Positions 1-7,578 of a DNA stretch of 8,598 nt are shown piece by piece (within the stretch, counting starts at the first letter, position 1; every line of letters starts with the position of its first letter). The notes below the pieces were generated by a model that was not told the origin of the DNA, did no database searches, and saw only the letters and a list, made by a program, of their open reading frames with translations. Made by a program: the position numbers and the translations under genes. This DNA comes from a virus (taxonomy: Duplodnaviria > Heunggongvirae > Uroviricota > Caudoviricetes): IMG/VR virus record IMGVR_UViG_2671180828_000009; one strand, 5' to 3'.

Positions 1-51
1 CCATATGAAATCATAAGAAGAATCATGTTGATAATCATCACAACTTTTCAT
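1..51 (-). CDS. Tail fiber assembly chaperone, N-terminal fragment only (gene runs off the left edge)
   Basis: ATG at 51..49 on the minus strand, 5 nt after the H stop (TAA at 56..54), opens a frame (MKSCDDYQHDSSYDFIW...) that stays open to the window edge. Position matches P2 gene G downstream of H. AT-rich like the H 3' end. Only 17 codons visible. Confidence 0.35.
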   Translation of the reverse strand, partial: MKSCDDYQHDSSYDFIW

Positions 52-53
52 AT

Positions 54-1493
54 TTAATATCCAAATGCAATAAATACAGCGCCTGAAACTTTTGAATCAC
101 TGCTGGTTCCTGATGTCAAACAAGTTACAGCAGTAAACCCATCATTATATATACTTTCGCACGACGTAACGACTTGTGCATATGTCATTTTTGTGACAAA
201 CACACCCCATACTCCGTTAGGGAATGGCGTTGGATATGTAATAGGAAGCTGTTGTGGAATACCAATAGTTGTACTATTAGGAAGATTTCTTCGAAATATT
301 TGTATAATTAAACCATTCGGACCTTTAACCAACAAATTATCGCTTCCTTTTCCTGTTAGCTGAAAATAGCTCATGTCAGGGATTTCATAACTATTAGCAT
401 TACCAACATTTCTACCTGCCGCATTTCCCAAATGCCCTAAACCAAGATAAGTAAGAATTCCTTCTATATCCTTTCCACTCAAATTAGTCAGCGTATTATC
501 CAGCGGTTGTTTGCCTGCCAGCGCATTAAGCATTGTCGTGGCAAAGTTCGGGTCATTCCCCAGCGCCGCCGCCAGTTCGTTCAGTGTATCCAGTGCCGCA
601 GGTGCAGACCCCACCATTGCTGCAATTGCCGATTTCACAAAAGCTGTAGTGGCAATCTGTGTATTGTTGACCGACTGCGCCGCCGTGGGGGCTGTTGGCG
701 TTCCGGTGAGTGCCGGACTCGACAACGGTGCTTTTAGTGCCAGCACATTGTTAATGGTGGTACTGAAATTCGGATCATTGTTAATGGCTGCGGCTATTTC
801 TTTCAGCGTGTCCAGCGTGGCTGGCGCACCATTAATAAGGGCCGTCAGTGCCGCCTGAACAAACGCAGTGGTCGCAACCTGCGTGGTATTATTCCCCGCC
901 GCTGGCGTTGGCGCTTTGGGGGTTCCGGTAAACGTCGGACTTTCTTTGGGTGCATACTGTGAATGTGGGTCCTGTGCGGCAAGGTGTTTTGCCATCAGGT
1001 CATCCACATACACCTTCAGCTCCAGTACCTTGTCATCCACATACTTGCGGGTTGCCAGCACTACAGCAGGATCGATTTTCAGGGTGATATTTTCCGTGCT
1101 GCTGGTAATCAGCACCATGCGCACGGTCTGGGTGCGCCCGCTGCCTTCAGCCAGTTGCGGCTTATAGCTTTCCGGGCAGTTGCCCACGGCAATCAATGCC
1201 CCGGACTCATCAAACAGGCCCACTTCACGTATCCACCAACCTCCCTCGTTTTCAGGGATCACCTGTTCGGCAATAATCTGGCTGCTGTTCTGCGGGTCGA
1301 TATAGAGCATATTCAGCGCAGCCCGGCGTTTCTCATTTACCAGTGCCGTCTGCTTTGCGTCCGGCGTTGGCAATGTTCCGCCGCCATCGCCGACCGCCAT
1401 ATGGGTAATTTTTAAAGGCACACCGAGCGCGGCGGCGCTGGCAAGTTTCGCCGCGCCAATATCCGTCAGCAGGGTATAAAATTTTGTGCTCAT
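54..1493 (-). CDS. H: Tail fiber protein (P2 gpH-like), 479 aa, with a divergent C-terminal receptor-binding region
   Basis: N-terminus MSTKFYTLLTDIGAAKLASAAALGVPLKITHMAVGDGGG... resembles the recalled P2 gpH N-terminal domain. Internal motif ...NNTQIATTAFV...ALDTLNELAAALGNDPNFATTM.NALAGKQP is the conserved tail-fibre repeat seen in P2 H and lambda Stf. Position immediately after I in the late operon. Confidence 0.9.
   Translation of the reverse strand: MSTKFYTLLTDIGAAKLASAAALGVPLKITHMAVGDGGGTLPTPDAKQTALVNEKRRAALNMLYIDPQNSSQIIAEQVIPENEGGWWIREVGLFDESGALIAVGNCPESYKPQLAEGSGRTQTVRMVLITSSTENITLKIDPAVVLATRKYVDDKVLELKVYVDDLMAKHLAAQDPHSQYAPKESPTFTGTPKAPTPAAGNNTTQVATTAFVQAALTALINGAPATLDTLKEIAAAINNDPNFSTTINNVLALKAPLSSPALTGTPTAPTAAQSVNNTQIATTAFVKSAIAAMVGSAPAALDTLNELAAALGNDPNFATTMLNALAGKQPLDNTLTNLSGKDIEGILTYLGLGHLGNAAGRNVGNANSYEIPDMSYFQLTGKGSDNLLVKGPNGLIIQIFRRNLPNSTTIGIPQQLPITYPTPFPNGVWGVFVTKMTYAQVVTSCESIYNDGFTAVTCLTSGTSSDSKVSGAVFIAFGY
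501..941 (-). repeat. Two tandem copies of a ~73-codon tail-fibre repeat inside H (about nt 723..941 and 501..719)
   Basis: Residues 185-257 (SPTFTGTPKAPTPAAGNNTTQVATTAFVQAALTALINGAPATLDTLKEIAAAINNDPNFSTTINNVLALKAPL) and 259-331 (SPALTGTPTAPTAAQSVNNTQIATTAFVKSAIAAMVGSAPAALDTLNELAAALGNDPNFATTMLNALAGKQPL) align along their length with roughly 60% identity. Also visible as paired antisense ORF segments. Confidence 0.7.
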
Positions 1494-2095
1494 GGATTCA
1501 CTCTCATTGTGTCAATAACATGGACCGCCCCGCCTTCATGCGCGGTGCCGCCGGAAATAATTGTTTCGTTGATATACGGATAGATCGTGATTTCTTCACC
1601 AAGATAGCTGGCGGCTCCCACCCAATGCGGGCCGCTGGTCTGCAGATTGATGGACATGCCGATCATGTGACGGCTACATGGTTTGGCATCGCTTATCAGC
1701 CGCTCAAGCTCCAGATAGGTATCTTCAGTGATGCCCTGGTCCTGCACACCAATGTCCAGGCGAAACGTACCCGGTGTTTCTCCGGTCTGCCACCACTCAA
1801 TAATGCGGATCAGGAAGCCGAACGGCTCCACCACCCGCCGCACGGCACTGGTGGTTCCTTTATGCTGATGAATATAAAAAGCATCCTTCACCACCTGTCG
1901 TTTGACGCTTTCCGTCCAGCCCTCGTCCCAGCAATCCACAGAGAACGCCCAGGCGAGATAAGGCAGGAAACTGATCGGACAGGTCGTTGGATTCCACAAG
2001 TCACGCAGCGGCACCTGCAGATCAGAAATCCCGCTGCAGGTTTGCGCCAGTCGGCGCTCCAGTGGCGTTGAACCCGGTGGCAGCAGACTATTCAT
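1490..2095 (-). CDS. I: Baseplate assembly protein I (P2 gpI-like), 201 aa
   Basis: Motifs LPPGSTPLE, LWNPTTCP, LPYLAWAFSVDCWDEGW, GTFRLDIGV are characteristic of P2 gpI-family proteins. 4-nt ATGA overlap with the H start. Position between J and H. Confidence 0.85.
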   Translation of the reverse strand: MNSLLPPGSTPLERRLAQTCSGISDLQVPLRDLWNPTTCPISFLPYLAWAFSVDCWDEGWTESVKRQVVKDAFYIHQHKGTTSAVRRVVEPFGFLIRIIEWWQTGETPGTFRLDIGVQDQGITEDTYLELERLISDAKPCSRHMIGMSINLQTSGPHWVGAASYLGEEITIYPYINETIISGGTAHEGGAVHVIDTMRVNP

Positions 2096-2996
2096 CCGTT
2101 CCTCCGTTGGTTACGCTCCACTGCGTACATGATGCCGCCTGTGTTTTGTTCAGGACCACATCCGCCAGAGGAGAAGCCAGCTCCACACGCTGCACACCCT
2201 CAACATGCAGGGCGGCAAAGATGGCGCTACGGCGAATATCCCGACCAAGACGCGTCTGACTGGCGATGTACTTCTGCAGGCTGGCTTTTGCCGCTGCCAT
2301 TACCGGCTCTGCTTCCGGTCCCGGATAGAGAAAAATGGTGGCTTCCACGCGATACGGGATGATTTCTGCGCTGCGAACCGTCAGACGGTCAGCCACCGGG
2401 CGGACGTTCTCACTGTTCAGAGCTTTTTCCACCACGTCCAGCAGGTCTTTTTCTGCAGTTCCATCGCCTTCGCGGCTAAGGACAGTCAGCACCACCTCTG
2501 CAGGTGCCGGGCTGGTTGCACTGGCATCCGCCACCCGACCGTCGGCGCTTCGGGCATGAAATTCATAAGCTGCAGTTGGCCCCGCAACTGAAAGCCCTTC
2601 AAAGGCTGCAGGCACACGCAGGCGTAACGATTCATCGCTTTCCATCACAGCTGCAACGGGCGGCACAGCGTCATTATCAGCAGGCGTCACCGTCAGGCGT
2701 TTCACGTTGTAGTTGGCAGCGATTTGGTCCAGATCGCCGCCCATCGCATAAGCCACCATCACCGCCTGCGCGGCTTCGTTAATGCGCTGGCGCAGAAGCA
2801 ACTCACGGTAAGCGTTCTCCTGCAACAATTTGGTGACGGGTTCAGATTCCAGTTCCAGCGTGCGGATCACTGCTTCCTGCTCATCTTTCGGATGAAGCGC
2901 CACAAATTCGGCCTTGCGTTCGGCAAGCAGCGTCTCAAAGTCCGGCACATCCACAATCTGCGGCGCAGGCAACTGCGAAAGGTCAATCACTGCCAT
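2088..2996 (-). CDS. J: Baseplate assembly protein J (P2 gpJ-like), about 302 aa
   Basis: The ORF track opens at 3035, but the likely start is the ATG at 2996 (MAVIDLSQLPAPQIV...), giving the expected gpJ length. Position between W and I. Overlaps the W 3' end by 14 nt and the I start by 8 nt. Confidence 0.85.
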   Translation of the reverse strand: MAVIDLSQLPAPQIVDVPDFETLLAERKAEFVALHPKDEQEAVIRTLELESEPVTKLLQENAYRELLLRQRINEAAQAVMVAYAMGGDLDQIAANYNVKRLTVTPADNDAVPPVAAVMESDESLRLRVPAAFEGLSVAGPTAAYEFHARSADGRVADASATSPAPAEVVLTVLSREGDGTAEKDLLDVVEKALNSENVRPVADRLTVRSAEIIPYRVEATIFLYPGPEAEPVMAAAKASLQKYIASQTRLGRDIRRSAIFAALHVEGVQRVELASPLADVVLNKTQAASCTQWSVTNGGTDE

Positions 2997-3342
2997 TCTC
3001 TGCTCCTGTTGATACGGAAAGGGAAACAGGCACACCGCTATTACGCCGCCCGGTCAGCTCCACCACCATTGAACCGTCAAAATTACTGTTGATGGTGATG
3101 GAATCCAGCGTCAGCCGTGGCTCCCAGCGACTCAGCGCCACATACACTGCCGACATGACCTGCAGGCGTAACGCCGGATTTTGTGGCTGGTCTATCAGTG
3201 CCGACAGCAGGGAACCATATTCCCGGCGAGCAATGCGGCTACCCTGCGGCGTCAGCAAAATGTCCCGCACCGACTGGCGCAGATGGTCAATATCAGTAAT
3301 GGCTTTACCGCTGATATTGTTCATCCCGCTATAAAGCGTCAT
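2983..3342 (-). CDS. W: Baseplate wedge protein W (gp25-like), 119 aa
   Basis: Size and sequence (MTLYSGMN..., ...REYGSLL..IDQPQNPALRLQ...WEPR...) are consistent with P2 gpW. Start ATG overlaps the upstream stop as ATGA. Confidence 0.85.
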   Translation of the reverse strand: MTLYSGMNNISGKAITDIDHLRQSVRDILLTPQGSRIARREYGSLLSALIDQPQNPALRLQVMSAVYVALSRWEPRLTLDSITINSNFDGSMVVELTGRRNSGVPVSLSVSTGAENGSD

Positions 3343-3938
3343 ACCGGGCCTCCGGTTGTATCGCCGCCTTTCAGGACGCCAGTATGCTGATGCGCATCAA
3401 CCACGATCCCGTTAGAACTCATAGCTCCGCCGCCCTGGGTAAGGCACCAGGCCATCTCCCGCGCACGGCGGTTATCCAGCCCCTGATTAAAAACACCTTT
3501 CACATAAACCCAGCGCGGCAACTGTCGGCACGCATCCGCCCAGCGCCGCTGATTGAGCAATTTCACCAGCGTGGAGCTGCAGGCATTGCCTGTCCCCACG
3601 TTGAAGGCAAATGACACCACCGCGTCATACACTTTCTGCGGCGGCTGTTGCTTCACACACCTTTCCAGCGCCCGCTCCACACGCAGCACGTTGGAGATCA
3701 GCCCTTCCGCTGCCTGTCGTTCCGTAATGGTTTTGCCTGGAATGACACCAGATGTATTACCAATGCCGTCTGTCCAGACACCCGCGCTGCACTGATACGG
3801 CTGCAGACGACAGCCTTCGTAATCGGCAATCAGTTTCAGCCCCTCCACGGAGGTGTGAAGCTGCTGAAAACCCGGCAGCGTGGCAGCAATAGCCAGCACG
3901 GCTCCGACAAGGCAGCGTTTAACGATTGATGGATTCAT
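3339..3938 (-). CDS. SAR endolysin, T4-lysozyme (GH24) family, P1 Lyz-like, with a ~30 aa C-terminal extension
   Basis: Weakly hydrophobic Gly/Ala-rich N-terminus MNPSIVKRCLVGAVLAIAATLPG followed by ...YEGCRLQPYQCSAGVWTDGIGNT..., which closely matches the recalled P1 Lyz catalytic region (EGCRRDPYMCPAGVWTDGIGNT). Start chosen at the in-frame ATG 3938 because GGGAGGA sits immediately upstream; the ORF track opens at 3965. Confidence 0.8.
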   Translation of the reverse strand: MNPSIVKRCLVGAVLAIAATLPGFQQLHTSVEGLKLIADYEGCRLQPYQCSAGVWTDGIGNTSGVIPGKTITERQAAEGLISNVLRVERALERCVKQQPPQKVYDAVVSFAFNVGTGNACSSTLVKLLNQRRWADACRQLPRWVYVKGVFNQGLDNRRAREMAWCLTQGGGAMSSNGIVVDAHQHTGVLKGGDTTGGPV

Positions 3939-4134
3939 AGTCCTCCCGCGAGATCTGCCCGTCACGCAGAAGCTGGTAGGCTTTGTGTTTGTAGTACCAG
4001 TTGATAGCCAGCATCAGCACACCAATCATCAGGCCGCCCAGCGTTGAGGCATCCTTGATGGACAAATCGCCCAGCCAGGCCAGCACGACGGCGATGCAAT
4101 ACGTGATAAAGGCGCTGATTCGCTCAAGCGTCAT
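3919..4134 (-). CDS. Class II holin (possible pinholin), 71 aa
   Basis: Two predicted transmembrane helices (ISAFITYCIAVVLAWLG and LGGLMIGVLMLAINWYY) followed by a charged C-terminal tail. Sits immediately upstream of, and overlapping, the SAR endolysin gene. Confidence 0.6.
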   Translation of the reverse strand: MTLERISAFITYCIAVVLAWLGDLSIKDASTLGGLMIGVLMLAINWYYKHKAYQLLRDGQISREDYESINR

Positions 4135-4137
4135 AAT

Positions 4138-4341
4138 TCAGTCCCATAGCTGGACGGTCTGCACGGTGGTGGTTGTCGGTATGTCCGGCAGCTCCACCTG
4201 CAACCCGTGAGGTAAAAAGGGGCCGTATTCGGCAAGCCCCGGATTTGCCTTCAGTACCTGCTCCGTGACACCCTGCGTGCGCCCGTAATGACGCCAGCAA
4301 AGCGCGTCCACCGTGTCATACTGATGCGCACGCACTTTCAT
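4138..4341 (-). CDS. X: Tail protein X (P2 gpX-like), 67 aa
   Basis: MKVRAHQYDTVDALCWRHYGRTQGVTEQVLKANPGLAEYGPFLPHGLQVELPD closely resembles recalled P2 gpX. Exact expected size and position after L. Confidence 0.85.
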   Translation of the reverse strand: MKVRAHQYDTVDALCWRHYGRTQGVTEQVLKANPGLAEYGPFLPHGLQVELPDIPTTTTVQTVQLWD

Positions 4342-4805
4342 CAGATAAGCTCCACTGTGCAGTGCGGCGCATCCTGTACCCGGCTGATGGCCCAGCGGGC
4401 GTCACGCCACAAATCACCGCTGGCTTCTGCCAGTTCCTCGCCTCGCTTCACACCCGATGCCGTGGCGTCATAGTCCTGGTATCGTTCGTTGAGCATGGCG
4501 CGTGCCCAACAATAAACCGCGTTGAAATAGTGCTGAATGCGCTCACTTTTGCCGTCCAGCTGTTCCGCCGGGACTTCTGCCAGCGACACATACCCCAGCA
4601 TCTGCTGACGTCTGCGAAACTCATACAGCTCTGCGTTGACCTCCGAAATTGCCGACAGAGCAACCTGCTTTAAACGCGGCTGCGTCACCGTGCCGTCAGT
4701 GCGCATGACACTGCGAAACTCCGACAGGTCCACATCAGGCCAGAACGGCGTATTTCTGATGATTTCCGCCTGTTCCGGTGCCTGTTCTGGCGCAACAAAC
4801 TTCAT
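4341..4805 (-). CDS. L: Head completion/stabilisation protein L (P2 gpL-like), about 154 aa
   Basis: Start assigned to ATG 4805 (MKFVAPEQ...) preceded by AGGAGA; the ORF track opens further upstream at 4868 inside a GC-rich hairpin. Position immediately before X. Confidence 0.8.
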   Translation of the reverse strand: MKFVAPEQAPEQAEIIRNTPFWPDVDLSEFRSVMRTDGTVTQPRLKQVALSAISEVNAELYEFRRRQQMLGYVSLAEVPAEQLDGKSERIQHYFNAVYCWARAMLNERYQDYDATASGVKRGEELAEASGDLWRDARWAISRVQDAPHCTVELI

Positions 4806-4818
4806 GCTGCTTTCTCCT

Positions 4819-4880
4819 GAAATAAAGGGCGGTGGACGGGGTTTTGATGTGGCAGTGCCTTTCGCCACCCCGTGCCGCCC
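4819..4880 (-). terminator. Candidate intrinsic terminator or structured element between the N remnant and L
   Basis: GC-rich imperfect stem (gggcgg..acgggg at 4828-4842 pairing with ccccgt.ccgccc at 4868-4880, ~25-nt loop) followed on the transcribed strand by CTTTATTTC just upstream of the L ribosome-binding site. Confidence 0.3.
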
Positions 4881-4900
4881 GTGCGCGGGGGCACGTTCTG

Positions 4901-5614
4901 TCAGCGGCTGTCATTGCGCAGTCTGCGCTCCAGCTGCTGTTTGTCTTTTTTCACGCCACAGCGGGGATCGAGCTGTAACGCATGGTTGAGATGATTAAGG
5001 GCAGACGCCGGATTCCCGACTTTCACTGCGCCCGGTGTGGTTTCACCGCCCGTGGTGGTGCTGCCCATGACGTGATCCGGTGCATCCTCACGGATTTTCT
5101 GCAGCCAGCCTTTGTTCACATCCTGCAGCAGCGGGTTTTCGCTACGGTTGGAGGTTTTCGCACGCTTCACGCCGTTAAAGCCGATCATGATGCGGTCCAG
5201 TGCCTGACGTTTCACGATGGCGTTACGGATACGCACCTGGAAATCCTGAAACTTCGCCCACAGGTCCAGCTTCGCGTAGGTCAGCACCGTGTCAAAGTTG
5301 GTCTGCTCGCATTTGTATTCCACATCGACCATCAGCGTCGGATCGACAGGCTCACGCTCTTTCGCGGTGGTGTCAGTGGTTCCGGCAATGGTGCTGCCAA
5401 CACCCAGCCCCAGCAACTGACCAGACTGCTCAGTCACTGGCGTGACGTTAATCAGCGTCAGGAATGCGGCGGACTGCTGGATCTGGTCTTCCAGCGTCTG
5501 CTGTACAGACGGCTCCACGGTGAACTTGCTGGACAGTTCTTCAACTGCCACACCGTTCAGACGCGCCAGCTGCTGCAGGTAAGCGTTAAAAGCAAAGCGG
5601 GTATTCTTCTTCAT
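4901..5614 (-). pseudogene. N: Major capsid protein N, 3'-truncated (237 codons versus about 350 expected)
   Basis: N-terminal ~205 aa (MKKNTRFAFNAYL...KFTVEPSV...LDLWAKFQDFQVRIRNAIVKRQALDRIMIGFNGVKRA...) look like a P2 N-family capsid protein. It follows O as expected, but the ORF is about 120 codons short, has a basic non-capsid-like tail (KKDKQQLERRLRNDSR), and no M gene lies between it and L. Confidence 0.7.
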
Positions 5615-5630: not shown

Positions 5631-6464
5631 TCAGCAATTGGTCAGAGTGTCAGCGGGGGCGTTACCGCCTGTTGCACGCTGGCGGTAGTCCTGGCGGCTG
5701 TCTTCATGGCTCAGCTTGTCCACCAGTTCGTTAAAGGCGGTCAGCTGTGCCTGCAGGGCTGTCTCCAGCTCAGACAGGCGTTCTTCCTGTTCAGACAGGG
5801 ATTTTTCGGTGCGCGCACTCAGGTTTTGCTGCTCAGTGGCGACCAGCTCCACGGCCTTATGCACATCAGAGAACCGGGCATCGTCGGACTGCTCTTTTTT
5901 GGTAAACAGCGCCGTGACACGGGCAAACAGGGACGGCTTGTCCTCCTGGATTTCTTCCAGTTCGATCACTGTTTCCTCTGCGGCGGTAAAGAGATTGGCG
6001 GGATTCTGCTTGCGGTTTGCCAGTGGGTTATGGGCTGCACTGGCGCTGAATGTCAGCATTTCAGTGCCCAGACTGGCAGGGTCATCAGTGGCAGCCAGGC
6101 CGACCAGGTAGGCTTTGCCCGTATCAGCGAACTTCGGGCTGACTTCCATAGAGGTGAATAATTTCTGGCCTTTTTTCACCAGTTCCACCAGGGACTCCGT
6201 TGGCTCAACGTCGGCATACAGCGCCATCTTGCCTGCCAGCGGACCTTCCGTGATTTCTTCAGCAAACAGCGCCGTCACCTTGCCGTAGCGGTTAAAGGTG
6301 CTGTCCGGCAGATAAGACTTGATGTGCTCAAGGTTAATCAGCGCGGTATACACCGCCGGGTTGTAGCTGGCTGCCATCTGTTCCAGCCATTCTCGCTGGA
6401 TTTCGCGTCCGTCGGTGGTGGCACCTTCCACCCCGATGCGAAAACGCTTTGCTTTCACTGTCAT
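5631..6464 (-). CDS. O: Capsid scaffolding protein O (P2 gpO-like), 277 aa
   Basis: ...FRIGVEG..DGR...INLEH...YG.V..L.AE...; ...AYLVGLAATDDPASLGTE... and C-terminal ...ATGG....D.LTNC match recalled gpO. GGAG 8 nt upstream of the ATG. Divergent from P. Confidence 0.85.
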   Translation of the reverse strand: MTVKAKRFRIGVEGATTDGREIQREWLEQMAASYNPAVYTALINLEHIKSYLPDSTFNRYGKVTALFAEEITEGPLAGKMALYADVEPTESLVELVKKGQKLFTSMEVSPKFADTGKAYLVGLAATDDPASLGTEMLTFSASAAHNPLANRKQNPANLFTAAEETVIELEEIQEDKPSLFARVTALFTKKEQSDDARFSDVHKAVELVATEQQNLSARTEKSLSEQEERLSELETALQAQLTAFNELVDKLSHEDSRQDYRQRATGGNAPADTLTNC

Positions 6465-6542
6465 GAGCCGTGCTCCGTTAGAAAAAACTTACTGGAGCCT
6501 TATGGTTGCGGTGATGGGGGCAGTGAAACAATGCGCGGTATT

Positions 6543-6560
6543 TGTACCGACAACCACACA
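6543..6560. promoter_or_regulatory. TGT-N12-ACA dyad, candidate Ogr/Delta-type late-promoter activator site (most plausibly for the O operon)
   Basis: TGTaccgacaaccacACA at 6543..6560 in the 142-bp O/P divergent intergenic region. P2-family late promoters carry this dyad centred near -55. The spacing puts a minus-strand transcription start about 30 nt upstream of the O ATG. Confidence 0.4.
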
Positions 6561-6606
6561 AACCGCAGGCGGGGAAAGCCTTCATTCAAGGCTGTAGGTT
6601 TGTGCC

Positions 6607-7578
6607 ATGAACACCACACTGACACCCGCAGATCTCGATCCCCGTCGGCAGGCCATGCTGCTGTACTTTCAGGGATACCGCGTAGCCCGCATTGCTGAAA
6701 TGCTGGGCGAGAAAGTTGCAACCGTTCACAGCTGGAAAAAACGCGACAAGTGGGGTGACTATGGGCCGCTGGATCAGATGCAGCTCACCACCGCCGCACG
6801 CTACTGCCAGCTCATCATGAAGGAGCACAAAGAAGGGAAAGATTTCAAAGAGATTGACCTGCTGGCGCGCCAGTCTGAGCGCCACGCGCGGATCGGCAAG
6901 TTTAACAATGGCGGCAACGAATCCGACTTAAACCCTAACGTCGCCAACCGCAACAAAGGCCCACGCCGTCAGCCGGAAAAGAATGTTTTCACCGATGAGC
7001 AGATTGAGAAGCTGGAAGAAATCTTCCATTCCTCCATGTTCAACTACCAGCGCCACTGGTGGGAAGCCGGAAAAACCAACCGCATCCGCAACCTGCTGAA
7101 GTCACGCCAGATCGGCGCGACCTTTTACTTTGCCCGTGAAGCCCTGATTGACGCCCTGCTGACCGGACGTAACCAGATTTTCCTTTCCGCCAGCAAGGCA
7201 CAGGCCCACGTCTTTAAGCAGTACATCATCGACTTCGCCAAAGAAGTGGAGGTGGAGTTGAAAGGCGATCCGATGGTGCTTCCTAACGGGGCCACGCTTT
7301 ACTTCCTCGGCACCAATGCCCGCACTGCCCAGAGTTATCACGGCAACCTGTATCTGGATGAATATTTCTGGATACCGAAATTCCAGGAGCTGCGCAAAGT
7401 GGCTTCCGGTATGGCTATTCACAAGAAATGGCGACAAACCTATTTTTCCACGCCATCCAGCCTGACACACAGTGCTTATCCGTTCTGGTCCGGTGCGCTA
7501 TTCAACCGTGGGCGCAACAAAGCCGATACCGCACCTGCAGCAACACGCCCGATCTCTGCGGTTGCACTCATGACGTAA
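6607..7578 (+). pseudogene. P: Terminase large subunit P, truncated (323 codons versus about 590 expected)
   Basis: N-terminal region (...[17 protein letters not shown]...[10 protein letters not shown]..., ...[17 protein letters not shown]...) is consistent with the P2 gpP N-terminal and ATPase region. The frame ends in a non-terminase-like tail overlapping the convergent cII-like gene. No portal gene Q follows. Confidence 0.75.

Follow-up and report, generated by a model that had tools for sequence, protein, structure and literature searches.

A probable P1 Lyz-class SAR endolysin joined in frame to a gpV apex in a defective P2-like Escherichia coli prophage

RESULTS

A lysozyme::gpV chimera in a prophage remnant

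The open reading frame at 3339-3938 of the window (the whole 8598-nt stretch of DNA analyzed here) probably encodes a signal-anchor-release (SAR) endolysin of the P1 Lyz class, belonging to a P2-like (Peduoviridae) E. coli prophage. The window is part of a multiply deleted, defective copy of such a prophage, and a microhomology-mediated, in-frame deletion of 2.3 kb has swapped the last four residues of the endolysin for the 33-residue apex of the tail spike protein gpV. The product is thus a lysozyme::gpV chimera, for which the plain annotation ‘endolysin’ is unsuitable. Disulfide-controlled SAR endolysins of the P1 Lyz type have been recognized since 2004-2005, and the endolysin biology encountered here is of this already described kind; the ortholog group of the window endolysin is found in far more than a thousand genomes of E. 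coli and Klebsiella. The survey of the family described below yields a cleaner diagnostic rule, consisting of a triple cysteine pattern plus a C-terminal cysteine pair (Cys137/Cys165) specific to exported members, and the window documents the stepwise decay of a P2-like prophage through microhomology deletions.

Both the list of open reading frames and direct reading of the sequence give a minus-strand frame of 199 amino acids plus a stop codon (Table 1). An alternative GTG start at 3965 was rejected, as homologs start at MNPS and the ATG is preceded by GGGAGG. Residues 39-161 match the Pfam family Phage_lysozyme (PF00959; E = 4e-40, profile positions 2-125 of 125), and only the last four residues (QGAN) of the intact 170-aa protein are missing from the endolysin-derived part. 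Residues 177-199 match the Pfam family GpV Apex (PF18946; E = 3.2e-6). The 33-residue tail matches the C-terminus of CFT073 gpV at every position and can be aligned with the last residues of P2 gpV (3QR8). Residues 167-199 correspond exactly to the C-terminal end of the gpV of this prophage, H-x-H included. In contrast to the apex of P2 gpV, only the last 33 of 192 gpV residues are present; they are off the trimeric beta-helix, appended to a lysozyme and predicted to be disordered. The preliminary description of this DNA had assigned the entire interval to an endolysin; the frame is real, but its last 33 codons (3342-3440) belong to the gpV C-terminus. Neither the gpV fusion nor the decay of the prophage was part of that earlier reading.

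Table 1. Features of the chimeric gene and its surroundings in the window
Feature	Position	Strand	Details
Whole open reading frame	3339-3938	minus	Endolysin (1-166) joined to gpV (159-192); BLASTP against the intact proteins
Start codon	3936-3938	minus	ATG; sequence reading
Stop codon	3339-3341	minus	TGA; overlaps the ATG of gpW
Shine-Dalgarno sequence	3942-3947	minus	GGGAGG, 3 nt 5' of the endolysin ATG; sequence reading
Endolysin-derived part, residues 1-166	3441-3938	minus	GH24/T4-lysozyme-type muramidase
Putative SAR segment, residues 9-24	3867-3914	minus	CLVGAVLAIAATLPGF; preceded by K7 R8, begins with Cys9
Cys9 codon	3912-3914	minus
Catalytic motif	3771-3818	minus	E41-G-C43-RLQPYQ-C50-SAGVW-T56; aligned without gaps to P1 Lyz E42/C44/C51/T57
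Glu41 codon	3816-3818	minus
Cys43 codon	3810-3812	minus	E+2 position
Cys50 codon	3789-3791	minus	E+9 position; itself a member of the catalytic triad
Cys137/Cys165 pair	3444-3530	minus	Cys137 3528-3530, Cys165 3444-3446; alignment and homolog counts
gpV-derived tail, residues 167-199 and stop	3339-3440	minus	TQGGGAMSSNGIVVDAHQHTGVLKGGDTTGGPV; spike apex, H-x-H at H183/H185
Deletion junction	3445-3449		5-nt microhomology, TGGTG on the gene strand
Holin gene	3919-4134	minus	71 aa, two hydrophobic segments (two TMDs); 20-nt overlap with the endolysin start

The deletion junction

By blastn against the CFT073 prophage (L002), window positions 1-3449 correspond to 1501-4950 of that prophage and window positions 3445-5014 to 7275-8844. 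Intact orthologs of the endolysin are 170 aa long and end in ...AWCLQGAN, compared with 199 aa for the window frame, and downstream of them lie a gene for a lysA-like membrane protein, lysB, lysC, R, S and V, all lost in the window. The approximately 2.3 kb absent at the junction comprise the lysA-like gene, lysB, lysC, R, S and most of V, so the deletion that created the fusion also removed the spanin and tail genes. The identical 199-aa protein occurs on 12 public contigs (NCBI and Logan assemblies), from which we conclude that the junction is real. The exact 46-nt junction was absent from the GTDB species-representative genomes, and a junction-spanning megablast found no match among 5426 complete E. 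coli genomes, four of which (N73, N137, N169 and N196) carry a different lysozyme/V-proximal deletion.

Relationship to P1 Lyz in sequence and fold

P1 Lyz is the best match of the window protein in both sequence and fold. A phmmer search of the PDB ranked the active form of P1 Lyz first (1XJT, E = 1.8e-26), followed by the inactive form (1XJU, E = 4.3e-25), and BLASTP gave 37% identity (2e-33) to P1 Lyz, using a query that is 100% identical to lyz of NC_005856. The motif EGCRLQPYQC (residues 41-50) aligns gap-free to EGCRRDPYMC of P1. Given this ranking and the absence of gaps, the sequence comparison indicates that the cysteines common to the two proteins reflect homology and not chance. They are alike in their GH24/T4-lysozyme fold, in a triad centered on Cys, in a Cys at E+2 and in an N-terminal SAR-like Cys. 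They differ in that P1 Lyz has 12 residues inserted after the NxG motif where the window protein has none, lacks the 33 gpV residues at the C-terminus, and is partnered by the holin LydA, whereas an HP1-family holin is found here.

Structural modeling, which the preliminary description had proposed, agrees with this placement. The AF2 model (mean pLDDT 85) scores above 90 for residues 4-169, N-terminal segment included, and below 50 for residues 170-199. Among PDB structures, the model comes closest to active P1 Lyz (1XJT; TM 0.82, rmsd 2.9), with inactive 1XJU at TM 0.61, and its residues 4-30 are packed on the catalytic body (pLDDT 96-97) as in 1XJT. The fused enzyme probably retains its catalytic activity and carries a disordered tail.

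Catalytic motif and cysteines

Phage muramidases of the GH24 family are defined by the triad Glu-8X-Asp/Cys-5X-Thr, and the catalytic Cys of P1 Lyz is blocked by a disulfide (PMC3556154). The window protein belongs to this family, with E41/C50/T56 forming a Glu-8X-Cys-5X-Thr triad in which Cys replaces Asp. Its seven cysteines (9/43/50/94/120/137/165) provide a counterpart for every one of the seven in P1 Lyz (13/44/51/91/118/150/178).

The preliminary description had put forward a P1 Lyz-type cysteine pattern, and all the sequence features of that class open to testing proved to be present. Translation places the Cys of the reported KRCLVGAV helix at Cys9 (residues 7-14), and the distance given there from the start holds, with 40 residues ahead of the Glu here and 41 in P1 Lyz. 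Two cysteines said to flank this Glu are both present in EGCRLQPYQC, but both are C-terminal to it, at E+2 and E+9. When the suggested alignments were made, Cys43 and Cys50 shared columns with cysteines of P1 Lyz, but Cys9 fell outside the column of P1 Cys13; the window protein grouped with P1 Lyz, and R21/RrrD were without these cysteines.

The MAFFT alignment of the window protein with P1 Lyz, Lyz103 and R21/RrrD shows E-G-C...C to be common to the window protein and P1 only, while the Cys137/Cys165 pair is invariant across all of them. Erwinia phage ERA103 Lyz103 is likewise a SAR-type GH24 enzyme with a Cys in the SAR segment, a Cys at E+2 and an equivalent of the C137/C165 pair. However, Lyz103, of the disulfide-caging class, has cysteines at E-1 and E+2 that bracket the Glu and an Asp at E+9 (D-C-E-G-C...K-D), whereas the window protein has Tyr40 at E-1 and Cys50 at E+9, which sets it outside that subclass. 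Phage 21 R21 and DLP12 RrrD (3HDE, 4ZPU) share the SAR-type GH24 architecture, a small-holin partner and the C-terminal cysteine pair. In contrast to the window protein with its C9, C43 and C50, they have a catalytic Asp and no Cys either within the SAR domain or close to the Glu, are activated by SAR refolding alone, and form a subclass with no cysteine control to which the window protein does not belong.

Much closer relatives have the same SAR segment and cysteines: the CFT073 prophage lysozyme WP_001069913.1 and the endolysin of Klebsiella phage 4LV2017, with 98% and 97% protein identity, respectively, across the lysozyme residues that align. In the annotated records of CFT073 and 4LV2017, holin and lysozyme are arranged as in the window. 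At the DNA level, 96-97% identity to the window is found for the CFT073 prophage, Klebsiella phages KP12 (96.8%) and 4LV2017, and Escherichia phages Cartapus and 500465-1. The KP12 endolysin (KP12.peg.319) has been expressed and purified; the paper, which does not treat the cysteines, describes it as a P1-like SAR endolysin that keeps its SAR domain and gives a TM-align score of 0.83 against 1XJT (PMC9902359).

The N-terminal segment

A weakly hydrophobic, putative transmembrane segment follows a basic n-region in the window protein, as in SAR proteins, though at 16 residues it is shorter than those with proven function. The uncharged run has a mean Kyte-Doolittle value of 2.11 and a G+A+S+T fraction of 0.44, compared with 1.6-1.9 and 0.55-0.65 over 20-23 residues in proven SAR domains (run length and fraction are 20 and 0.55 in P1 Lyz, 23 and 0.65 in R21, and 21 and 0.57 in Lyz103). 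Cys9 supplies the Cys within the SAR segment that marks the P1 Lyz class; it stands directly after KR, at a distance of 34 residues from the E+2 Cys, compared with 31 in P1. A lipoprotein signal was rejected, since V-K-R ahead of Cys9 is no lipobox. The segment holds A16-I-A18 and ends in the helix-breaking P22-G23; R21/RrrD have a comparable A-I-A-I-A-S within the SAR domain. Judged by its sequence alone, a 16-residue run with A-I-A is about as similar to a short signal peptide as it is to a membrane anchor.

The neighboring holin also fits an SAR endolysin, which is expected to have such a gene adjacent to it. It matches the HP1-family holins (Pfam PF16080, E = 4.3e-9) and, below the threshold, the phage 21 holin S family; 70 of its 71 residues are identical to those of the CFT073 holin.

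Conservation of the cysteines among homologs

Family counts were taken over 50%-identity cluster representatives, after loosening the motif regular expression so as to catch SAR-type representatives. The E+2 Cys is present in 19/19 homologs that have an N-terminal TMD and a catalytic Cys versus 18/39 soluble catalytic-Cys homologs (Fisher p = 2e-5), although the representatives are phylogenetically related and the counts overstate their independence. A Cys in the TMD lies 32-34 residues upstream of the E+2 Cys in 17/19 of the SAR-type catalytic-Cys representatives, 34 being the commonest spacing. Both a TMD Cys and an E+2 Cys are missing from the two SAR-type representatives whose catalytic residue is Asp. 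Such co-occurrence of the TMD Cys and the E+2 Cys with a catalytic Cys is a prediction of the isomerization model. Among SAR-type homologs of the window protein, the SAR Cys is kept in 24/24 close and 11/11 divergent ones, Cys43 and Cys50 in 11/11 divergent ones, and the three-cysteine combination down to ∼36% identity.

The EGC..C pair has no diagnostic value by itself, being carried also by 18/39 soluble homologs with a catalytic Cys (18/60 soluble homologs overall); the informative sequence marker is the triple cysteine pattern. Since the pair occurs in soluble homologs that are unable to use an SAR thiol, two of the three cysteines may be retained for other reasons. Of the divergent SAR-type homologs, 10/11 have Cys137 and 11/11 have Cys165, and the pair occurs in 0/25 soluble homologs.

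DISCUSSION

Proposed activation and competing readings

By homology to P1 Lyz, we infer export, membrane tethering, specific disulfide partners and thiol-disulfide isomerization for the endolysin. K7 R8 and the C9-F24 segment would drive Sec export and keep the enzyme attached to the inner membrane on its periplasmic side. In this tethered form, Cys50 of the catalytic triad would be locked in a disulfide with Cys43, and Cys9 would lie buried where the membrane borders the cytoplasm. Once the adjacent small holin depolarizes the membrane, the N-terminal segment would slip out and the Cys9 thiol could attack the Cys43-Cys50 disulfide, giving Cys9-Cys43 and freeing Cys50. The released segment would then pack onto the catalytic body, and the active muramidase would cut peptidoglycan. 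Cys137-Cys165 is probably a structural disulfide typical of exported members. The same three positions reportedly form the switch in P1 Lyz, a finding attributed to Xu et al. in 2005 (Science 307:113).

The N-terminal segment might instead be an ordinary cleavable Sec signal peptide, yielding a soluble periplasmic lysozyme from which Cys9 is discarded with no regulatory role. The short uncharged run, the KR n-region, A16-I-A18 and the terminal P22-G23 would all suit a signal peptide, and T4 RI, long taken for an SAR protein, is actually cleaved (PMC8385771). However, the conservation of Cys9 in all close and divergent SAR-type homologs, at a spacing of 32-34 residues, would be odd for a residue that is removed, and the AF2 model packs the segment on the enzyme body as in active P1 Lyz. 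A freely secreted active muramidase would also kill the cell before the holin fires. The SAR domains of P1 Lyz and R21 remain uncleaved, and the A-I-A-I-A-S of R21/RrrD lies inside such a proven domain (PMC8385771). We therefore regard cleavage as very unlikely. An SAR endolysin whose cysteines are no switch is a somewhat stronger contender, though still an unlikely one. Activation would then proceed by SAR refolding alone, as in R21, which functions without cysteines at these positions; EGC..C would be ancestral, in keeping with its presence in soluble relatives that have no N-terminal segment, and the SAR Cys, which is not positionally homologous to P1 Cys13, would be incidental or would only stabilize the active form. 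Against this stand the enrichment of the E+2 Cys in SAR-type catalytic-Cys homologs, the TMD Cys in nearly all of them, the absence of both from the pair with a catalytic Asp, and the switch that P1 Lyz is said to build on the same three positions.

A separate question is whether the gene still serves any purpose, and here it is quite possible, if short of an even chance, that it is a functionless relic: an accidental deletion chimera in a dead prophage, never usefully expressed, with the cysteine pattern as a fossil. This would be compatible with the identity of the protein as a P1-type endolysin. Replication, portal and capsid functions have gone from the remnant, as have several tail genes: it lacks the replication genes, the portal, half of the terminase, an intact capsid gene, the spanins, R, S, V, E, T and U. 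Its junction is a plain 5-nt microhomology, the gpV tail is predicted to be disordered, and databases hold many other random fusion and frameshift alleles of the endolysin gene. On the other hand, the holin (70/71 identical) and lysozyme residues 1-166 (98%) are intact, the three same-strand deletions in the remnant are all in-frame fusions, and the allele recurs on the 12 public contigs, which come from several different samples. In addition, ogr is retained along with two TGT-N12-ACA dyads in the O/P intergenic region, so that transactivation could still occur; two dyads in the whole window are not above the 2.5 expected by chance, and it is the location of both in this region that is suggestive.

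A possible use of the remaining lysis genes

The lysis cassette of the remnant can no longer serve phage release. It is conceivable, but highly improbable in our view, that the holin and the lysozyme-gpV apex fusion have been retained as a lysis module usable by the host within a domesticated prophage remnant. Several features prompt the idea: the in-frame deletions keep downstream translation, ogr and the late-promoter dyads are still there, neither the holin nor the catalytic domain is damaged, and several E. coli samples share the allele. A P2-like phage or P4 residing in the same cell could set off this module, or it could be put to use in autolysis, and the appended H-x-H peptide of the apex might even give the lysozyme a new property, for example metal binding or oligomerization.

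Relationship to P1 Lyz

The endolysin ORF is preceded by GGGAGG 3 nt 5' of its ATG (read on the minus strand), its start shares 20 nt with the preceding gene, and its TGA overlaps the ATG of the following gene. In Pfam, residues 39-161 form a full-length Phage_lysozyme domain (E 4e-40) and, unexpectedly, residues 177-199 match the GpV Apex motif (E 3.2e-6). The two strings quoted in the preliminary description, KRCLVGAV and EGCRLQPYQC, are both present, at residues 7-14, where a 16-residue uncharged run (C9-F24) begins within K7-R8-C9-LVGAV, and at residues 41-50, where E41-G-C43-RLQPYQ-C50 opens the catalytic region.

That description had assigned the protein the regulatory cysteine pattern of P1 Lyz, a signal-anchor-release (SAR) endolysin. 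When all PDB chains are searched with phmmer, the P1 Lyz structures rank first (1XJT, 1.8e-26; 1XJU, 4.3e-25), ahead of R21 (3HDE) and RrrD (4ZPU) at ~1e-17. The same search aligns EGCRLQPYQCSAGVWTDGIGNT with EGCRRDPYMCPAGVWTDGIGNT of P1 Lyz without gaps, and BLASTP gives 37% identity (2e-33); the P1 Lyz sequence used matches lyz of NC_005856 at 100% identity across 185 aa (tblastn). The catalytic triad E41/C50/T56 corresponds to E42/C51/T57. In a five-way alignment, P1 Lyz is the sole match for the E-G-C...C arrangement, whereas Lyz103 of Erwinia phage ERA103 reads D-C-E-G-C...K-D, with cysteines on both sides of the Glu and a catalytic Asp (the 'caging' subclass), and R21 and RrrD have Asp and no cysteine in this region. 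The P1-, Lyz103- and R21-type subclasses were reportedly defined by Xu et al. in 2004 and 2005, Sun et al. in 2009 and Kuty et al. in 2010.

Both proteins have seven cysteines (9/43/50/94/120/137/165 here and 13/44/51/91/118/150/178 in P1 Lyz), all pairwise equivalent or near-equivalent. The SAR cysteine is the one real exception: it directly follows KR and lies 34 residues before the cysteine two positions past the catalytic Glu (E+2 Cys), compared with 31 in P1 Lyz. Cys43 and Cys50 align with P1 Cys44 and Cys51; Cys9 falls outside the P1 Cys13 column.

Cysteine pattern across the family

Using residues 1-166 as query against 1.84 billion cluster representatives, we classified the best 150, leaving out copies of the window protein. 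The E+2 Cys occurs in all 19 representatives in which an N-terminal hydrophobic segment is combined with a catalytic Cys; 17 of these also carry a segment Cys, 32-34 residues before it (most commonly 34), while the other two have short N-termini and starts that may be miscalled. The two SAR-type representatives whose catalytic residue is Asp lack both cysteines. The triple combination therefore behaves as a unit, as the isomerisation model would predict. Among soluble homologs with a catalytic Cys (soluble meaning Glu at position 24 or earlier, with no space for a transmembrane domain), just 18 of 39 have the E+2 Cys, against 19/19 for the SAR type (p = 2e-5, Fisher), although the representatives are kin to one another and the counts are not independent events. 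The EGC..C pair is widespread among enzymes unable to use a SAR thiol and so is not diagnostic alone. About 30% of soluble GH24 homologs without an N-terminal segment (homologs P0164-P0261) have both E+2 and catalytic Cys, and seven more pair the E+2 Cys with Asp as the catalytic residue.

By alignment columns, all 11 divergent homologs of the SAR type (36-55% identity) retain Cys9, Cys43 and Cys50. Cys165 is likewise present in 11/11 and Cys137 in 10/11, compared with 0/25 soluble homologs for both, and P1 Lyz, Lyz103 and R21/RrrD all have the pair. These counts, too, come from related sequences and are not independent events. Cys137-Cys165 is probably a structural disulfide marking the exported branch of GH24 endolysins. 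As a sequence feature, the pair is independent evidence that the window protein belongs to this periplasm-oxidised branch.

Putative SAR domain and predicted fold

The uncharged run of 16 residues is shorter than those of proven SAR domains (20, 23 and 21) and somewhat poorer in Gly/Ala/Ser/Thr (0.44 versus 0.55-0.65), with a similar mean hydrophobicity. On sequence alone, the segment could instead be a short cleavable signal peptide, given its A16-I-A18 motif and its P-G end. However, the R21 SAR domain has a comparable AIAIAS and remains uncleaved in experiment (PMC8385771), and Cys9 is conserved at a fixed spacing. In the AlphaFold2 model (mean pLDDT 85, pTM 0.79; built from 61 aligned sequences), residues 4-30 pack against the catalytic body at pLDDT 96-97, which also argues against cleavage. 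The best Foldseek match of the model is active full-length P1 Lyz 1XJT (target-normalised TM 0.82, rmsd 2.9 Å, 172 columns), while secreted inactive 1XJU reaches a TM of just 0.61. Sequence, family statistics and predicted fold thus support the P1 Lyz-type assignment, and by homology the thiol-disulfide chemistry would be as in P1 Lyz.

The endolysin is a member of an already known kind. Phage KP12 DNA matches the window at 96.8%, and its endolysin KP12.peg.319 has been cloned, purified and modelled (TM-align 0.83 to 1XJT), with the SAR domain described as conserved (PMC9902359). In Klebsiella phage 4LV2017 (NC_047818.1 gp20, gp21), RefSeq annotates the lysozyme from Met13, so that the SAR segment loses its KRC start, and also labels the downstream lysA-like membrane protein (DNZ54_00345/PF28015 family elsewhere) 'endolysin'; each is likely to be an annotation error. 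Two further facts deserve note, the decay of the prophage and a lysozyme::gpV chimera.

Prophage decay

The window corresponds to contig CDQN01000172.1 (assembly GCA_000938575.1). Its host is E. coli: flanking sequence in the full locus (L003) matches ybjJ-rcdA at 100% identity. The window DNA is 96-97% identical to P2-like Peduoviridae phages, among them Klebsiella 4LV2017 and KP12, Escherichia Cartapus and 500465-1, and the CFT073 prophage. Against an intact relative, blastn yields three collinear blocks and two internal gaps in the window, and the full remnant is ~15 kb versus 33.5 kb for an intact phage. A 997-bp deletion fused gpN(1-200) in frame to gpM(180-216), giving a 237-aa 'capsid' ORF; no functional major capsid protein and no small terminase are encoded as a result. 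FII(1-164)::gpD(103-366) is a further fusion outside the window. A ~10-kb deletion removed replication, defence (a retron effector in 4LV2017) and portal genes and truncated a CII-like gene and terminase P (291/572 residues), which now overlap convergently. The prophage is unable to make virions. All three same-strand internal deletions are in frame, which by chance has a probability of (1/3)^3 = 0.037; the pattern may point to selection against polar effects on the genes downstream, or it may be coincidence.

The lysis cassette of the remnant lacks spanins, and its holin is identical to the intact holin at 70/71 residues. The window has only two TGT-N12-ACA dyads, both located between the divergent O and P genes in the O/P intergenic region, and ogr is kept in the remnant, so that expression upon transactivation is conceivable. 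This intergenic region is the expected place of P2-type Ogr-dependent late promoters. W-J-I-H appear to have been fused into the O operon, since the region 5' of V was lost.

Coordinates of features in the window and related loci
Feature	Sequence	Position	Strand	Remarks
Endolysin ORF	window	3339-3938	-	ATG 3936-3938, TGA 3339-3341, product 199 aa
gpV apex tail and junction	window	3339-3449	-	last 33 codons of endolysin ORF; TGGTG at 3445-3449
Cys165 codon	window	3444-3446	-	
Cys137 codon	window	3528-3530	-	
gpN::gpM ORF	window	4901-5614		junction ~5013
TGT-N12-ACA dyads	window	6543-6560, 6601-6618		
CII-like/terminase P overlap	window	~7476-7578	-/+	~10-kb deletion junction, ~7528
N::M	L003 (full locus)	6325-7038		
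Lys::V	L003	8001-8600		
FII::D	L003	14775-16043		
Lysozyme and membrane protein labels	L001 (4LV2017)	6443-7295		
Left-breakpoint alleles	L011; L013, L014, L016; L015 (E. coli assemblies)	~6444-6470; ~3444-3470; ~3069-3095		equivalent to window ~3474-3478

Lysozyme::gpV fusion

In annotated intact CFT073 and 4LV2017, the genes run X, holin (HP1 family), lysozyme (170 aa), lysA-like membrane protein, lysB, lysC, R, S, V, W. At the first of the two blastn gaps, lysozyme codon 166 of the window is joined to gpV codon 159 through the 5-nt microhomology TGGTG, with ~2.3 kb deleted (the lysA-like gene, lysB, lysC, R, S and most of V). The in-frame product is Lys(1-166)::gpV(159-192), in which the lysozyme loses QGAN alone. 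The appended 33 residues are the C-terminal apex of the baseplate spike gpV (PF18946) with its H-x-H motif; they align to the end of P2 gpV 3QR8 and are predicted to be disordered (pLDDT < 50, AlphaFold2).

Five independent lysozyme deletion alleles in other E. coli assemblies share a left breakpoint, equal within 1-2 nt, after codon 155, reading GGGCTGGAT(A)|. Their right-hand partners differ (gpT, gpU, the lysB/C region, gpE and non-phage DNA), and codon 155 is a deletion hot spot. Just downstream of this breakpoint is the mini-palindrome CCGCCGTGCGCGG.
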